From: Smithella sp.
Lineage (GTDB): Bacteria; Desulfobacterota; Syntrophia; Syntrophales; Smithellaceae
Length of the DNA stretch: 64,000 bases
Assembly: GCA_017993615.1 (NCBI GenBank)
Contig: JAGOMJ010000007.1
Span: forward strand, 1,587 to 65,586
Direction of reading: 5' to 3'
The translations under genes were made by a program, and so were the position numbers. Positions within the stretch are counted from its first letter, which is position 1. The number at the start of each line of letters is the position of its first letter. Below, one piece after another: positions 27,500 through 32,319 of the stretch. The notes under the pieces are model-generated. The model saw nothing but the letters and a program-made list of their open reading frames with translations. It had not been told where the DNA came from and did no database searches.

Positions 27500-28261
27500 T
27501 CAGCCTTTTCGGAGATACTTTTCCGCGCGGGTGAGTTCTTCCAGCGTGTTGATTCCCATCACTTCAACGTAATCGTCAGCGATAAATGATTTTACCTTCT
27601 GGCCTTCACAAACGGCTATTTCAACAATATCGGTCAGATAATATTCCTGTTGCCGGTTGTTATTGGTCACTTTTCCCAAAGCATGAAACAAAAACTCTGT
27701 ATCCACACAATAAATGCCGGTATTGATTTCCCCGATTTTTTTCTCCTCTTCCGTGGCATCCCTATGCTCGACTATTTTCAAAACATTGCCCTTGCTGTCC
27801 TTTACGATGCGGCCATAGGCATGAGGATGCGGTGGAATGGTTGTCAACACAGAAACGACCGCTTTTTCGGCGACATGATTATCCACCAGCGATTTGATTG
27901 TCGCCGGTTTTAAAAGCGGCACATCGCCGCAAAGAATTACGGTAAAGCCTTTGTAATCAGTCAGTACATCCTTCGCCTGTAAAACGGCATGCCCCGTTCC
28001 CAACTGCGGATTCTGTTCGACAAAAATACAGCCGTTGGCGGCAAATGTTTCCCTGACTCTCTCCGCCTGATGGCCGATCACGGCTACAATCTTTTCGACG
28101 CCAACCGCTCTTGCCGCTTCGATGGAATAATAAAGCAGGGGCTTTCCGTTCAACTCATGCAGAACCTTGGCCTTATCCGATTTCATTCGGGTACCCTTCC
28201 CCGCCGCCAGTATCAACGCACAAAATTTCGTTTCGTTCACCTTATCAAACATCTCCTTCAA
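27500..28261 (-). CDS. sugar-1-phosphate nucleotidyltransferase, GlmU N-terminal-domain-like (no LbH acetyltransferase domain)
   Basis: ALILAAGKGTRMKS, LHELNGKPLL, QLGTGHAV and VILCGDVPL are GlmU-type pyrophosphorylase motifs. At 253 aa, only the nucleotidyltransferase domain is present. Confidence 0.8.
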   Translation of the reverse strand: MKEMFDKVNETKFCALILAAGKGTRMKSDKAKVLHELNGKPLLYYSIEAARAVGVEKIVAVIGHQAERVRETFAANGCIFVEQNPQLGTGHAVLQAKDVLTDYKGFTVILCGDVPLLKPATIKSLVDNHVAEKAVVSVLTTIPPHPHAYGRIVKDSKGNVLKIVEHRDATEEEKKIGEINTGIYCVDTEFLFHALGKVTNNNRQQEYYLTDIVEIAVCEGQKVKSFIADDYVEVMGINTLEELTRAEKYLRKG

Positions 28262-28298
28262 TCGTCATACCAACGAAGGTCGGTATCCTGTATTTTAA
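28177..28298 (+). repeat. direct repeat A flanking the AbiE module (5' end plus upstream region of the nucleotidyltransferase gene plus REP copy 2)
   Basis: Aligns with 29600..29718. The 34-nt core 28188-28221 differs at one position from 29616-29649, and the flanks are alignable with indels. Confidence 0.8.
28264..28288 (+). repeat. REP-like palindromic element, copy 2
   Basis: GTCATACCAACGAAGGTCGGTATCC: stem ATACCxAC/GTCGGTAT with one mismatch. Confidence 0.7.
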
Positions 28299-28301
28299 AT
28301 T

Positions 28302-28964
28302 CTACCTGAGTTTATCCCTCAGGTTCGCCTCCAGAATGCGGAATCCGTTTTCCACATAATACTTTCGTTCCGAGACATCAAGCAACGAACCTAGCTTTAC
28401 TGAAAAATCCTTTTTGCCCAATTTCCCCAGTTTCGTAAGCATTTGGGTGATAACCTCATGATCGGCATTCAAAACAATCCCGCGTTTTACTAGAAATTCT
28501 ATATCATATGCGTCGCGTATTTCCCGGCGGTCAAGAAAGGCTTCGATTTTTGAAGTCATCATATCTTTTAGCGCCACGGTTTTCAACATCACCTGAACCG
28601 GCGCGTGCGGACTGTAGGCGATGCTCGTTTCTGTCTTGACGTTCTTTACCGTTTTCCGTATCTCAATTTTCAGCGACCGTGGAAACTGCGGCGATTTCAA
28701 TTCGAACAGAATTGTAAAATGCTTATTGGCGGAATCGGCTATTTTGTAAAACTGGCCCAGATATTTTTCCATCCGGCTATAGTATTTTGCCCAATCCATC
28801 TCCCTAACTACCCAGAAATCCAGATCAACTGAATAACGATTCAGTCCATGACACAAGCGCAACATGGTGCCGCCGCCGAAAATCAAGTTGGCCAGAAACC
28901 GCCCGCTTTGAAGTCTGTTTAAAACTTCCAGCTCAAATTGTTCATGTTGAATCAAATCCAGCAT
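28302..28964 (-). CDS. abiEii: AbiEii/AbiGii-family nucleotidyltransferase toxin (type IV TA)
   Basis: FGGGTMLRLCHGLNRYSVDLDFW is the DUF1814 nucleotidyltransferase signature. Overlaps the upstream antitoxin gene by 13 nt. Confidence 0.85.
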   Translation of the reverse strand: MLDLIQHEQFELEVLNRLQSGRFLANLIFGGGTMLRLCHGLNRYSVDLDFWVVREMDWAKYYSRMEKYLGQFYKIADSANKHFTILFELKSPQFPRSLKIEIRKTVKNVKTETSIAYSPHAPVQVMLKTVALKDMMTSKIEAFLDRREIRDAYDIEFLVKRGIVLNADHEVITQMLTKLGKLGKKDFSVKLGSLLDVSERKYYVENGFRILEANLRDKLR

Positions 28965-29548
28965 AATCTTTTAACCGTCTCTTTTGTTTTTTGCGGATAG
29001 ATTTTGATGATGCTCCTGAGCTTCTTGATATCCAGCTTCTTCATATCCAGAGAATCAACATCGAACTTATATTTGCCGAACGAATAAAGATAGGCAGCGT
29101 CCACAAACGCTTTCTCTTTAGTGGCGATGAAGATGCCATCCGTTTTAACAAAATCACCATAGTATCGGGCCTGAACTTTGACATAATTGAAGACCGCTTC
29201 CCTTACATTGTAAACAATCGAACGTTTCAGGCAAATATTTTCCTGATAGTTGTTCTGCGCCTGCGTCGTTACTTCATAATAAGCCAGAGCCGACATCAGG
29301 GAAATATAGGAAGGAACCTGCAGGATATTGGCGATTTTGAAAAAATCCTGACGATTAAGATTTTCCCACTTCCAGGCGGTGGTATAAAAACCTTTTTTCA
29401 ATCTTATCAGCACCCCCTGCCGGACATAGCGGCTGCACAATACGCGGGCGGATGCCGTTTGCATTCCCAAACTCTGCGCCACATCTTCGAGGGTAAAGCA
29501 GGTTTTCCTGCTCAATTCCTGCAATTCTGCCATATTTTTACTAAGCAT
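28952..29548 (-). CDS. abiEi: AbiEi-family antitoxin/transcriptional regulator
   Basis: N-terminal winged-helix-like region (FTLEDVAQSLGMQTASARVLCSRYVRQGVLIRLKKGFY) and a C-terminal domain (YISLMSALAYYEVT). Gene order and overlap with abiEii are canonical. Confidence 0.8.
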   Translation of the reverse strand: MLSKNMAELQELSRKTCFTLEDVAQSLGMQTASARVLCSRYVRQGVLIRLKKGFYTTAWKWENLNRQDFFKIANILQVPSYISLMSALAYYEVTTQAQNNYQENICLKRSIVYNVREAVFNYVKVQARYYGDFVKTDGIFIATKEKAFVDAAYLYSFGKYKFDVDSLDMKKLDIKKLRSIIKIYPQKTKETVKRLCWI

Positions 29549-29605: not shown

Positions 29606-29650
29606 TTATTTCATGCGGGTACCCTTCCCCGCCGCCAATATCAACGCACT
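29606..29650 (-). pseudogene. relic 5' fragment of a GlmU-like nucleotidyltransferase gene
   Basis: The minus strand encodes S-ALILAAGKGTRMK then a stop. This is identical in amino acids to residues ALILAAGKGTRMK of the intact gene at 27500..28261. There is no start codon or continuation. Confidence 0.75.
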
Positions 29651-29680
29651 TTCCTACACCTTATCAATCCTTATTCGTTT

Positions 29681-29705
29681 GTCATACCGGCGCAGGCCGG
29701 TATCC
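29681..29705 (+). repeat. REP-like palindromic element, copy 3
   Basis: GTCATACCGGCGCAGGCCGGTATCC: stem ATACCGGC/GCCGGTAT around a GCAG loop. Translates as VIPAQAGIQ in spurious ORF 29564..29947. Confidence 0.75.
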
Positions 29706-29721
29706 AGTATTTTAAAATTAA

Positions 29722-30921
29722 TTATGCCTTATTATTGTGGGGGAAAAATAATAGTCTATCTGGGAATTTAAGTTTCTTTTTCAATGTATCTATAGATGCT
29801 TCTTCCCCCAACGATTCGACGATGTCTTTAATTTTTCCCGCATCTCCCATGTTGGGCTTCCCAAACGTTAATAAATCTATTTCAAGGTTCTTAAGAATCG
29901 GACTTAATATTCTCAAGTATTCATCCCGAGGACATCCACCTGCGTAAAAAACTAGAATGTCATATTGTCCTCTTCTAATTAATCTTGACGTTGTATCTTG
30001 CCATTTCTCATTAATAATATTTTCATTACCTTTGATTTCTAGATCGTAATGATCAATATCATCGGAAGGATTAACCAGCCCATGTTTGGTCGTAAGAATA
30101 ACAAATTTACATCCCAAATCACTTGCGACATTTCTAACGGCTCCAACCCACTTTGCGCTTGGGAAGAAATATTCTGCTTTATATTTGTCTTTCTTTTGTG
30201 ATGCCGGACTCGCATCGGCAGAGCACAGAATTATTCTGTTAAGTTGATATGGTCCTATGGTCTCGTCTTTTGCTTCTTTGACTCTGGTTTTATCCAAAAC
30301 AATATTGTTTTGAACAGGCATAATGACATTATCATGAGGTTCCTCCATCCATAATATAAATTCACCATCCAATGGTAATTTATATTGTTCTCGGAACCAC
30401 TTCTGGAGAGAGATATATTCGTTATAATCACCAAGTCGACTCCACGGTTTTGACGGGACAGGAGCACCTCTTTTTTTAATTTTATCTAAAATTATATTGT
30501 CAATAGGAACATGACAAAACTCATATAAACCAGAATAACCGGGTAATCTTTTCTCACCCACACAAAATATATACTTAAAAGTCATGTTTATCCATTTCTG
30601 TGCCTGCCCAATGGAAAAATTAATGAAATCATTTTCTTTATATAAATTTTTTAAATGAAGGCATTTTTCTTTATGCCATTTATCAAATTCTTCGTGGTCA
30701 TTTAATGACTCTTTTTTTATATCTATGAAAATTGAGAGCAGATATTTTACGGCTCTATCAAATAAATCTTGTTTATTTTTGTGATCATCCATTCCATGAA
30801 GGGTTCTATTGAAATCGCGATAGGCTCTATTGATACATGATTTTATTAAATCATTTTTGGTCCCAAAATAGAGACGGATTAAATACTCTTCCCAATCTTG
30901 TCTTGTTAAATCTGATTTCAT
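29722..30921 (-). CDS. orphan two-domain protein: unknown helical N-domain plus DUF6884/YaaA-like C-domain (tentative)
   Basis: 399-aa ORF with AAGGA 8 nt upstream of the ATG. Markedly AT-rich relative to its neighbours. The C-terminal pattern ILCSADASPASQKKDKYKAEYFFPSAKW...CKFVILTTKHGLVNPSDDIDHYDLEI resembles the DUF6884/YaaA signature (C-S...K...A..F...ILSxKxGLxxPxxxIxxYD). N-domain motifs GQAQKWINMTFKY and CHVPIDN are not recognised. Confidence 0.7.
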   Translation of the reverse strand: MKSDLTRQDWEEYLIRLYFGTKNDLIKSCINRAYRDFNRTLHGMDDHKNKQDLFDRAVKYLLSIFIDIKKESLNDHEEFDKWHKEKCLHLKNLYKENDFINFSIGQAQKWINMTFKYIFCVGEKRLPGYSGLYEFCHVPIDNIILDKIKKRGAPVPSKPWSRLGDYNEYISLQKWFREQYKLPLDGEFILWMEEPHDNVIMPVQNNIVLDKTRVKEAKDETIGPYQLNRIILCSADASPASQKKDKYKAEYFFPSAKWVGAVRNVASDLGCKFVILTTKHGLVNPSDDIDHYDLEIKGNENIINEKWQDTTSRLIRRGQYDILVFYAGGCPRDEYLRILSPILKNLEIDLLTFGKPNMGDAGKIKDIVESLGEEASIDTLKKKLKFPDRLLFFPHNNKA

Positions 30922-31001: not shown

Positions 31002-31028
31002 CTGGATTCCCGCCTGCGCGGGAATGAC
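31002..31028 (-). repeat. REP-like palindromic element, copy 4 (inverted orientation)
   Basis: Plus strand reads CTGGATTCCCGCCTGCGCGGGAATGAC, so the minus strand reads GTCATTCCCGCGCAGGCGGGAATCCAG. Translates as IPACAGMT in spurious ORF 30985..31182. Confidence 0.75.
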
Positions 31029-31038
31029 AAAAAGATAT

Positions 31039-32319
31039 TTATTTGTTCCCCTCTTGAATAAAAGGCGCGATTACCGTCACTTCCTTAATCGATTTCTGGT
31101 CGGCGTTTTCAATAATAAACGTCACATCGCCATACTGATAATATTCTTTTATTCGGGGAATTTTACCCATCTGATACATTAGAAAGCCGCCTACGGTTTC
31201 ATAATTCCCTTCGGGGAATTTCGCTTTAACCAATTGCCGCAGAGTTCCTATTTCCAGCCTGCCTGACACAAGATAACGTCCTTCAGCAATTTTTCTGTAA
31301 AGCTTTTCTCCCGACACGTATTCATCAATTGTTCCGACGATTTCTTCGCCGATATCCTCAATGGTGACAACGCCGGTCGCGCCACCGTATTCATCCACCA
31401 CCACCGCCATCTGCTCGTCTCTTTTTTGCATTGCTGCGAGCAGTTCGCTGACCTTTTTTGTTTCCGGAACATAAAAGACATCTTTGCGCATGCAGGAGGC
31501 AACCGTCGCTTCGCCGACACCTTCGCCTTTCTCCTTGTCCTTGAGGAGCATTTCAAAAAGATCGAAGTAGCGTAAAATGCCGACGATGTTGTAAACGGTA
31601 TCTTCATAAACGGGAATGCGCATGTATTTTTTATCGGCCACAACACCTACGGCTTCGGAAATTTTCATGGAAGCGGACAGCGCCGTCAAAGCGGAAACCG
31701 GCACCATGATTTTCATGGCCGTAAGTTCGGAGAAATCAAACACCCGGCTGACCATTTCCTTCTCACGCGTCAGGATATCGCCCCCTTTTGTTTTTTCGCC
31801 CAAGATGTATTTGAGGCCTTCCTTGGTAATGTGCGAGGACTGCCCGCTTCTGGTATCGGAAGAGAAATGCACCGTGCTTCTGGAAACGGCCGCGATCACG
31901 AAGGCGATCGGATAAAAAAGTATCGATGAAAAACGGATAAACCAGGCAACACGCATCGCCATGGCTTCCGCGTAGTAAAGAAATATGCTGCGGGCAATGA
32001 TCATGAGAAACAGCGTGGGAATCATGATCAGGAAAGCGATTTTTTCGCCGCGTGCCGGACCGTAAAAAGAAATTAAAAGACCGGTGATAAGCGTTGAAGC
32101 GATGATGATCGCCAGATTGGTCCCGACAAGTGCCGTCGAGATAAACCATTCCGGCTTTTCTTTGAGCTTGACGGCCTGGTGGGCGGATGTTGACCCCTGA
32201 TGCGCTCGGTTTTTCAGTTTATTGATATCGGAAGCAAAAAGCGCTACTTCACCGCCGGAATAAAGCATTTCCAGCATCAGACAAAACAATATGGCTGCGA
32301 CGATTAAATATAGGCTCAT
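31039..32319 (-). CDS. CNNM/CorC-HlyC family transporter-associated protein (DUF21 + CBS pair + CorC_HlyC)
   Basis: N-terminal DUF21 TM domain (SGGEVALFAS), CBS pair, and a C-terminal CorC domain (FPEGNYETVGGFLM...VTFIIENADQKSIKEV). Confidence 0.85.
   Translation of the reverse strand: MSLYLIVAAILFCLMLEMLYSGGEVALFASDINKLKNRAHQGSTSAHQAVKLKEKPEWFISTALVGTNLAIIIASTLITGLLISFYGPARGEKIAFLIMIPTLFLMIIARSIFLYYAEAMAMRVAWFIRFSSILFYPIAFVIAAVSRSTVHFSSDTRSGQSSHITKEGLKYILGEKTKGGDILTREKEMVSRVFDFSELTAMKIMVPVSALTALSASMKISEAVGVVADKKYMRIPVYEDTVYNIVGILRYFDLFEMLLKDKEKGEGVGEATVASCMRKDVFYVPETKKVSELLAAMQKRDEQMAVVVDEYGGATGVVTIEDIGEEIVGTIDEYVSGEKLYRKIAEGRYLVSGRLEIGTLRQLVKAKFPEGNYETVGGFLMYQMGKIPRIKEYYQYGDVTFIIENADQKSIKEVTVIAPFIQEGNK

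Follow-up and report, generated by a model that had tools for sequence, protein, structure and literature searches.

A low-G+C two-domain gene of Smithella joins an apparently undescribed helical family to a divergent DUF6884 domain: a possible reader and effector of non-canonical DNA bases

A 64-kb stretch of DNA from Smithella sp. (contig JAGOMJ010000007.1; hereafter, the window) contains, at positions 29722-30921, a gene for a 399-aa protein composed of an N-terminal helical domain and a C-terminal α/β domain of the DUF6884 type. The gene lies between a CNNM/CorC gene and an AbiEi/AbiEii cassette, beyond which a GlmU-like gene follows. Its content of guanine plus cytosine (G+C) is 33.8%, and 28.7% at third codon positions (GC3), against window medians of 47.4% and 53.6%, and of the 62 non-overlapping open reading frames (ORFs) with 100 aa or more in the window it is the lowest in G+C. 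This bears out the original prediction, made from the sequence by itself, that this ORF is the most compositionally foreign gene of the window. In sliding 300-nt windows, G+C amounts to 28-38% across the ORF and to ~42-52% in the flanks; the AT contrast is therefore real but somewhat smaller than the 50-55% proposed for the flanks would imply. As set out below, the 399-aa gene is conserved, under selection and horizontally acquired.

The AlphaFold2 model of the whole protein, computed from a 73-sequence alignment, reaches a predicted local distance difference test score (pLDDT) of 91.5 and consists of nine helices (aa 7-192), a disordered linker (aa 195-215) and an α/β domain (aa 230-393), in agreement with the two-domain layout proposed previously. 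The full architecture is common to 12 proteins with identities of 44-66% and dozens of invariant alignment columns. Moreover, homologue searches recovered about 50 clusters of stand-alone N-domains of roughly 220 aa and other proteins in which the C-domain is joined to unrelated sequences and, thus, the two halves are independent modules. The gene had been described as an orphan, which does not hold for either half, since the N-domain family comprises 3,785 cluster representatives and stand-alone proteins of the C-domain subfamily, of ~180 aa, form more than 120 clusters. No match of the 399-aa protein to ATPase, nuclease, methylase or kinase families was found in Pfam, NCBIfam and PADLOC, which upholds the absence of such motifs noted earlier.

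The protein is found in identical form on 262 blocks of public assemblies, mostly anaerobic-digester metagenomes, and always in the same context. In a second species (uncultured Smithella sp.), the gene order is CorC, the gene under study, AbiEi, AbiEii, GlmU and Dus, with 82.5% aa identity for the 399-aa protein, the same G+C of 33.8% and hairpins at the corresponding places; the gene has been resident since before the split of these two species. The ratio of nonsynonymous to synonymous substitution rates (dN/dS; Nei-Gojobori) between the two species is 0.18 for the whole gene, 0.18 for the N-domain, 0.44 for the linker and 0.15 for the C-domain, while neighbouring genes show values of 0.07-0.11. 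Constraint thus acts on the two domains and is relaxed in the linker; the gene is functional. The dS of the gene (window 29722-30921 against L024:6001-7218) is 0.56, below the 0.79-1.62 of its neighbours, and this low value together with the unchanged G+C suggests either that composition or codon usage is strongly constrained or that the lineages exchanged the gene at a later time.

The N-terminal domain, modelled on its own, forms nine helices with a pLDDT of 93.7 and a predicted template modelling (pTM) score of 0.90. It has no meaningful match in Pfam (E values up to 10), NCBIfam, PADLOC or PHROGs; Foldseek against the PDB gave nothing below E 0.01 for the whole model and nothing below E 2 for the isolated domain, and no N-domain match in BFVD. 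Profile and fold searches thus agree with the earlier statement that this half cannot be placed in any described family. An exhaustive profile search (E up to 1e-3) defines a family of mostly ~200-aa proteins, the representatives mentioned above corresponding to clusters at 50% identity. A search for the strict motif GQAQKW[ILV]N matched 264 of 185,579 species genomes, dispersed across numerous phyla, as well as 20 viral contigs; among sequenced plasmids and among cultured phages the motif is almost lacking, at one match for each collection. In a 39-sequence alignment, R39, H83, G105-Q-A-Q-K109-W110, N112, M113, K116, H137, D141 and E187 are invariant, and Y34, D36, T40, D80, P139, W160, S161, Y166, Y169 and W191 nearly so; in a broader 137-sequence alignment, invariance is retained by G105, Q108, N112 and H137, and the majority of the remaining residues stay nearly invariant. 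This residue set looks like an active or ligand-binding site. In the helical fold, G105-Q-A-Q-K109 starts helix 104-121 and P-I-D141-N starts helix 142-149. As a resemblance and not an alignment, this recalls the hairpin Gly and Lys and the later catalytic Asp at a helix N-terminus of HhH-GPD glycosylases, with a spacing unlike that of EndoIII and Dag1. A Cys-based zinc site was also considered and dropped, because C29, C87 and C136 are not conserved across the wider family.

The N-domain family shows further arrangements. In three proteins (P0063, P0318 and P0334), the N-domain is joined at its C-terminus to DUF6508 (Pfam 1e-8 to 2e-7), a domain on which no paper was found, and other members carry unannotated N-terminal extensions of 100-150 aa belonging to at least three unrelated groups. 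On 12-13 related viral contigs from IMG/VR (L106-L120; e.g., L108:6001-6606), an N-family gene lies directly downstream of a probable large terminase gene, a label read from the sequence, and upstream of a conserved 291-aa gene. The N proteins of these contigs are closest to that of a Candidatus Cloacimonas metagenome-assembled genome (L103), and no que or dpd genes are present in their flanks.

The C-terminal domain can be assigned to a known family. The match to PF21818 (DUF6884) scores 32.9 bits with the whole protein and 34.8 bits with the C-domain alone, just above the Pfam cut-off of 30, and the same family is matched by 21 of the 73 homologues. In BFVD, five of the seven best Foldseek matches are named DUF6884 or YaaA (E 1.3e-5 to 3.3e-3, probability 1.0, target TM 0.33-0.60), and a phage protein named YaaA is found among the fold matches with E 1.4e-3. 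The DUF6884/YaaA-type resemblance proposed for this half was thus confirmed by a score above the Pfam threshold and by the match of the model to phage DUF6884/YaaA proteins. PF03883 (YaaA/DUF328) does not match the protein even at E up to 1 and matches one of the 73 homologues (6.4e-5); in the PDB, Foldseek of the whole model gave only weak matches to uracil-DNA glycosylase (UDG)-like and flavodoxin-like structures, and no YaaA chain appeared among the 50 best matches. Among the PADLOC models, the PDC-M57A profile matches aa 241-350 (5e-6), while the DpdC model matches weakly over 46 residues (E 0.007, 13.8 bits), compared with 4e-84 for a true DpdC found as a neighbour of an N-family gene.

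Alignment with DpdC and two canonical DUF6884 proteins shows that the core ...ILxxxxGLVxP...PYD and the cysteine are retained. The motifs of the subfamily are L-C233-S-A-D236-A-S-P-x-S241-Q242, W258-V-G, R263-N264, I-L-T-T-x-H-G281, P-Y292-D293, F-Y-A-G-G and F-G-x-P-x-M-x-D-x-G-K. The C-domain is a divergent member of the DUF6884 superfamily with a remodelled pocket and not a DpdC orthologue. The Pfam curators describe DUF6884 as YaaA-like, with CxxxK and LSAxxG motifs and a positively charged DNA-binding cleft, propose a base-flipping AlphaFold3 model for YfjM, and report that YfjM was recovered in pull-downs with abasic and RNA-base lesions (PMC11701544). DpdC belongs to DUF6884 (PMC11888242) and alone in vitro converts preQ0-DNA to ADG-DNA (PMC10164549). 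The view that the biochemical role of DUF6884 is unknown, as stated in the original prediction, is thus outdated, since at least one member carries out a demonstrated reaction on DNA.

The same C-subfamily is joined to other partners as well. In P0016, P0056, P0026 and P0018, it is fused to a different domain, for which, with P0016 as a single-sequence query, the five best PDB matches are all helix-hairpin-helix (HhH)-GPD glycosylases, namely three of the Ogg2 type (best E 0.003), 3fhg and MagIII, with an alignment that spans G-I-G-x-K ... D-R-H-I. A mixed profile of four sequences of this partner lost the PDB signal, so that the single-sequence result stands alone. A third, sizeable partner family occupies the C-terminal ~250 aa of P0023, P0024 and P0030 and also occurs as unannotated stand-alone proteins of ~226 aa (P0337-P0454); it is characterized by the motifs GLVxaSKvLFavlPEvAlPiDN, TiDYgdii and EIxxWE and has no Pfam or PDB match with a single sequence or with a 49-sequence profile. 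A pattern P-I-D-N ... D-Y ... E-x3-W that seemed common to the partners was set aside as a visual resemblance, the hhalign comparisons being non-significant. Since these partners replace one another on the C-domain and one of them is HhH-GPD-like, the N-domain would, by analogy, be a base-excision or base-recognition module, provided that interchangeable partners do similar jobs.

The genomic contexts of the N family provide a link to 7-deazaguanine. In species-representative genomes, four independent loci (L038/L039, L041, L042 and L049) place an N gene by queC, queD or queE, Vut_1, dpdA, dpdB or dpdC. In L041 and L049, the N gene stands beside dpdC, dpdB', dpdA, dpdB, queC, queD and queE; in L042 (Paenibacillus tyrfis), the order is helicase, Vut_1, N, a 135-aa gene overlapping N by 4 nt, and queC; and in L038/L039 a Mre11/SbcD-like gene, a SbcC-like gene, N, queC, Vut_1 and queD follow one another. 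A metagenome scan seeded with the proteins of these four loci, and thus aimed at their subclade, gave 17 loci that share 48% identity or more with the L049 protein. Of these, 10 carry que/dpd genes; another two have the SbcCD-like pair and end just after N, and five are contigs of at most 4.5 kb. None of the 63 more distant metagenome loci has que/dpd genes. In L049, L124 and L127, N and dpdC are divergently oriented, and in L056 a 153-aa DUF6884 gene follows the N gene. One clade of the N family is an integral component of islands for the modification of DNA with 7-deazaguanine, and the N and DUF6884 families recur as neighbours and, in Smithella, as a fusion.

Two types of these islands have features of their own. 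In the SbcCD type (L138:4207-16518; L129; contigs SXGR01078311.1 and SXGU01002447.1), genes for a Mre11/SbcD-like protein, a SbcC-like ATPase, N, queC, Vut_1 (YhhQ-like), queD, queE, a TGT-DUF6884 protein, a 406-aa protein and a HerA-like ATPase are flanked by NERD-UvrD and AAA_11/12-REase_MTES_1575 (helicase) genes. Here transglycosylase and DUF6884 are combined in one chain (DpdA plus DpdC; Pfam TGT plus DUF6884, 8e-42), and the whole looks like a compact Dpd-like system without DpdB; no description of such an island with a DpdA-DpdC fusion was found in the literature. In the dpdABC type, a conserved 250-aa protein without a Pfam match is encoded after the N gene (L127:8684-9433; L049:6628-7380), and integrase-, excisionase- and primase-like genes, assigned from sequence and size, make these islands look like integrative elements.

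Other relatives are found in defence-type surroundings. The closest full-length homologue (P0002, 66% identity; L013:7960-14020, JGI Ga0247842_10003772) carries an additional HD-like domain at its C-terminus (Pfam E 0.0015) and is encoded near a DUF4160/DUF2442 pair, a Shedu SduA_C gene, a CopG/PIN pair and DUF6884 and GIY_YIG_3 genes, a context of toxin-antitoxin and Shedu genes. The 138-aa DUF6884 gene overlaps the GIY_YIG_3 gene three genes (~2 kb) downstream of P0002, and this pair may correspond to PDC-M57. The gene of P0024 adjoins those of a SACS/NOV_C protein and a ResIII helicase. Some N genes are neighbours of a type III restriction endonuclease, a type I S subunit, type II methyltransferases, PDC-S01, PDC-S11, PDC-S18 or DpdC. 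The lowest G+C of the window, the sporadic spread over species genomes, the defence-type neighbours of P0002 and P0024 and the restriction and PDC neighbours together give the gene an accessory character. In the neighbourhoods looked at, no conserved operon partner of N-only or C-only genes was found.

A DNA-directed role is the natural reading of the 399-aa protein. With a probability of roughly 0.4, we infer that it is a single-chain reader and effector for non-canonical DNA bases and probably a modification-dependent defence enzyme, which would bind DNA, flip a non-canonical base and remove or alter it. Firstly, the C-domain would bind duplex DNA and flip the base into a pocket lined by the invariant subfamily residues C233, D236, S241, Q242, W258, R263, N264, G281, Y292 and D293. 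Secondly, the N-domain may contribute a further step of catalysis or recognition, and most likely the excision of a base as performed by HhH-type glycosylases, with K109, D141, E187 and W191 as the candidate active-site set. The likely substrate would be a non-canonical purine, such as a 7-deazaguanine derivative. Since no dpd or que genes occur near the gene in the window, its most likely role in Smithella would be a modification-dependent attack on foreign (phage) DNA, comparable to that of the Dag and Brig glycosylases.

Several observations weigh against this interpretation. In the C-domain, the lysine of CxxxK is missing: C233 is invariant, but four residues further on the subfamily has an equally invariant Ala (L-C-S-A-D-A), whereas the alignment shows the Lys retained in DpdC, in the DUF6884 protein L056_3 and in the 138-aa protein near P0002. 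LSAxxG is also altered to LTTxHG, aligning as I-L-T-T-K-H-G, with Leu and Gly kept and Ser-Ala replaced by Thr-Thr throughout the subfamily. Given these two changes, the chemistry of the C-domain need not resemble that of DpdC. For the N-domain, sequence searches of the PDB gave zero matches at E up to 10 (phmmer; 39- and 137-sequence profiles), and Foldseek gave no significant glycosylase match: the list is headed by HhH-GPD proteins, with MagIII first (the best E, 2.1), then hOGG1 and then the AGOG-like 1xg7 (the best TM, 0.32). Comparison of the N-domain with the two other partner families by hhalign was not significant either (E 0.36, 0.49 and 0.1). With regard to context, the N-domain of the window falls outside the dpd-linked subclade, being ~41% identical to the L049 protein, and tblastn found no QueC/D/E, DpdA/B/C or Vut_1 gene in the 64 kb. 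No Pfam family occurs in more than two of the 120 immediate neighbour proteins of 74 genomic N-family genes, these neighbours include many housekeeping genes, and the stand-alone C-domain genes are also solitary and in unremarkable contexts. Finally, the gene is fixed at a single locus in two Smithella species, unlike a rapidly turning-over defence gene. The defence role proposed in the original prediction is plausible as a hypothesis; the 74 N-gene neighbourhoods are very heterogeneous.

An unlikely alternative, and the one that survives best, is that the protein acts on the DNA of its own host as a writer or converter like DpdC, the DUF6884 domain altering a base already present in DNA and the N-domain serving as an accessory modification or targeting module, in cooperation with genes at other places of the genome. 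DpdC, the one DUF6884 protein with a defined biochemistry, does convert bases, the invariant cysteine of the family is retained, N genes in the dpd islands adjoin dpdA/B/C and queC/D/E and not only restriction-type genes, and the gene under study has been passed on stably in two Smithella species. However, dpdA, dpdB and que genes are absent within the 64 kb, the CxxxK lysine is lost, the fusion of the C-subfamily to a glycosylase-like domain fits base removal better than conversion, and most N-family genes are solitary.

Less probable still would be a DNA-damage or stress protein like YaaA and YfjM, which would bind lesions such as abasic sites, ribonucleotides or oxidised bases and aid their repair with no anti-phage role. 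This proposal draws on the relationship of DUF6884 to YaaA, a DNA-binding oxidative-stress protein, on the lesions on which YfjM was pulled down (PMC11701544), on a locus that is fixed and under purifying selection and on the several N-only and C-only homologues found among housekeeping genes. It is difficult to reconcile with a sporadic distribution, patchy over phyla, with a strongly foreign composition that shows no drift towards that of the host in two species, with relatives in defence and mobile-element contexts and with the existence of phage-borne copies, and it leaves the specific embedding in dpd/que clusters unexplained.

The surroundings of the gene in the window (Table 1) bear on its relationship to AbiE. 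A REP-like hairpin element, GTCATWCCSGCGMAGGCSGGWATCC, occurs in only three copies in the 64 kb, with 0 expected by chance; the two palindromes earlier noted around the 399-aa gene are real and are copies of this element. Direct repeats of 90-100 bp, which comprise the initial codons of the glmU-like gene (…CALILAAGKGTRMK) together with its leader and the hairpin, bracket the 1.4-kb AbiEi/AbiEii cassette. This repeat has the appearance of a duplicated target, or of a footprint that recombination left when the cassette inserted. Because the cassette has direct repeats of its own that include the duplicated 5' end of glmU, AbiE is judged to have inserted separately into the 5' region of glmU, and the 399-aa gene abutted glmU before this insertion. 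AbiE genes are absent from all homologue neighbourhoods looked at outside Smithella and are present at two Smithella loci only. Therefore, the predicted adjacency to AbiE is correct as to position but carries little weight as a clue; the description of the locus as a small variable islet with foreign composition is upheld by the repeat and G+C analyses. The idea of an integron cassette was set aside, since no integrase turned up in the scans made and the flanking hairpins are 25-nt REP-like elements.

It is accordingly very improbable that the protein serves the AbiEi/AbiEii module as a third part, be it a sensor, a regulator or an additional toxin: the shared orientation, the position 173 bp upstream of abiEi and the persistence of the trio in the second Smithella species speak for it, and the separate bracketing of the cassette, the earlier junction of the gene with glmU, the promoter-like site of abiEi itself (29597-29570, 10 of 12 positions matching) and the lack of AbiE genes in the other homologue neighbourhoods speak against it. 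A decaying or functionless mobile-element remnant that keeps an ORF, which the AT-rich, repeat-flanked sequence without annotated function might suggest, is effectively refuted by the dN/dS with constraint on both domains, and also contradicted by the confident model, the dozens of invariant columns across homologues of 44-66% identity and the identical protein on 262 assembly blocks.

Table 1. Coordinates of the gene, its domains and the surrounding features in the window.
Feature	Position	Strand	Basis and remarks
399-aa two-domain protein, complete coding sequence	29722..30921	(-)	ORF list; ATG start; stop codon 29722-29724
N-terminal helical domain, aa 1-195	30337..30921	(-)	Alignments; domain-only AlphaFold2 model
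Inter-domain linker, aa 196-219	30265..30336	(-)	pLDDT <50 for aa 195-215; poor conservation; dN/dS 0.44
C-terminal DUF6884-type α/β domain, aa 220-399	29725..30264	(-)	Pfam PF21818; PADLOC; BFVD Foldseek; alignments
CNNM/CorC gene, upstream neighbour	31039-32319	As 399-aa gene	Pfam/PADLOC scans
REP-like hairpin GTCATTCCCGCGCAGGCGGGAATCC	31004-31028	(-)	Between CorC stop codon and 399-aa gene; pattern search
REP-like hairpin GTCATACCGGCGCAGGCCGGTATCC	29681-29705	(+)	Just 3' of the stop codon of the 399-aa gene; inverted relative to upstream copy; pattern search
REP-like hairpin, degenerate third copy	28264-28288	(+)	Pattern search
Direct repeat of 90-100 bp, upstream copy	29628-29716	(+)	Duplicated 5' end of glmU-like gene plus REP-like hairpin; repeat search
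Direct repeat of 90-100 bp, partner copy	28200-28299		Repeat search; strings aligned
AbiEi/AbiEii type IV toxin-antitoxin cassette	28302..29548	(-)	Pfam AbiEi_4, AbiEii; PADLOC AbiEii 2e-95; AbiEi 28952-29548, AbiEii 28302-28964
GlmU-like nucleotidyltransferase gene, beyond the AbiE pair	27500-28261	As 399-aa gene	Pfam/PADLOC scans

In the literature on DUF6884, PDC-M57, DUF6508, DpdC/DpdA and recent work on 7-deazaguanine defence, no description was found of the two-domain architecture, of the N-domain family or of its tie to Dpd-type islands. All three appear to be undescribed; the C-domain, by comparison, diverges within a family that is already known. DNA modifications with 7-deazaguanine are a current frontier, since phages use them to evade restriction and bacteria employ them in the Dpd system, and it was not until 2025 that defence glycosylases directed at them were described. 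In this field, a large uncharacterised family of which one subclade lies consistently inside dpd/que clusters, and which in Smithella is fused to a DpdC-type domain, gives rise to the directly testable hypothesis that both families cooperate on modified DNA bases. If the reader/effector interpretation is true, it would add a component to Dpd-like systems, provide a function for thousands of hypothetical proteins and offer a possible new reagent to detect or cut 7-deazapurine-modified DNA. A bolder version, tentative at best, is that the N-domain represents a new and widespread class of DNA-base-directed enzymes or readers, an overlooked component of Dpd-like islands, which in Smithella is joined to a lysine-less DUF6884 domain as a self-contained sensor-effector destroying or rewriting 7-deazapurine-modified DNA. 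This would amount to a mechanistically new modification-dependent immunity and not to another HhH glycosylase.

Among known systems, the PADLOC candidate PDC-M57 resembles the protein through the profile match of its component A to aa 241-350 (5e-6). However, it is a multi-gene candidate for which no mechanism was found in the literature, whereas the 399-aa gene has no nuclease partner. YfjM of B. subtilis and YaaA of E. coli (DUF328, PDB 5caj) have the DNA-binding 'cantaloupe' fold and are placed in the same superfamily by the Pfam curators (PMC11701544), but both are single-domain proteins, and the 399-aa protein has no PF03883 match.

According to a 2025 preprint, the Dag glycosylases, which have the HhH fold, form a widespread type of defence and destroy phage DNA that carries 7-deazaguanine; they are missed by sequence searches and occur in AT-rich mobile contexts, and Dag1 needs K118, D184 and W188, with a contribution from D132 (bioRxiv 10.1101/2025.10.29.685425). 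The gene studied here may work like those of Dag1-Dag17 (HhH) and Brig1/Brig2 (UDG superfamily), which are small, sequence-orphan, AT-rich and horizontally moving and whose products recognise modified phage DNA bases (for the Dags, 7-deazaguanines). The N-domain is also all-helical, with HhH-GPD proteins as its weak, non-significant best PDB neighbours, and its K109, D141, E187 and W191 follow the order of K118, D132, D184 and W188 of Dag1, with the acid-x3-Trp spacing shared; this comparison uses the published residues of Dag1. Unlike in Dag1, where 14 residues separate Lys and Asp, this spacing is 32 residues in the N-domain. The Dags are single-domain proteins, whereas the 399-aa protein adds DUF6884, and the searches made gave no significant fold or sequence similarity. 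The N-domain motif and the taxa and accessions of its homologues were not found in the tables of the Dag preprint, which list locus tags and accessions without sequences. The phage enzymes DpdL, DpdM and DpdN were rejected as an identity for the protein, since they belong to different families (QueD paralogue, DUF3109 and formyltransferase, respectively).

Finally, DpdC differs from the 399-aa protein in its length (~310 aa), its CxxxK motif (C-T-G-R-K), its long C-terminal extension and its dpdA/dpdB/que context. In turn, the 399-aa protein has C-S-A-D-A and its own SQ, W-V-G, R-N, F-Y-A-G-G and P-x-M-x-D-x-G-K motifs, has an N-terminal domain of unrelated type and lacks dpd genes in its neighbourhood. 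Nevertheless, the two share the DUF6884 core, in which a β strand ending in the conserved Cys is followed by F-V-I-L-(S/T)-x-x-x-G-L-V-x-P...I-x-P-Y-(D/E); relatives of the N-domain adjoin dpdC, and DpdC acts directly on the base in duplex DNA (PMC10164549).

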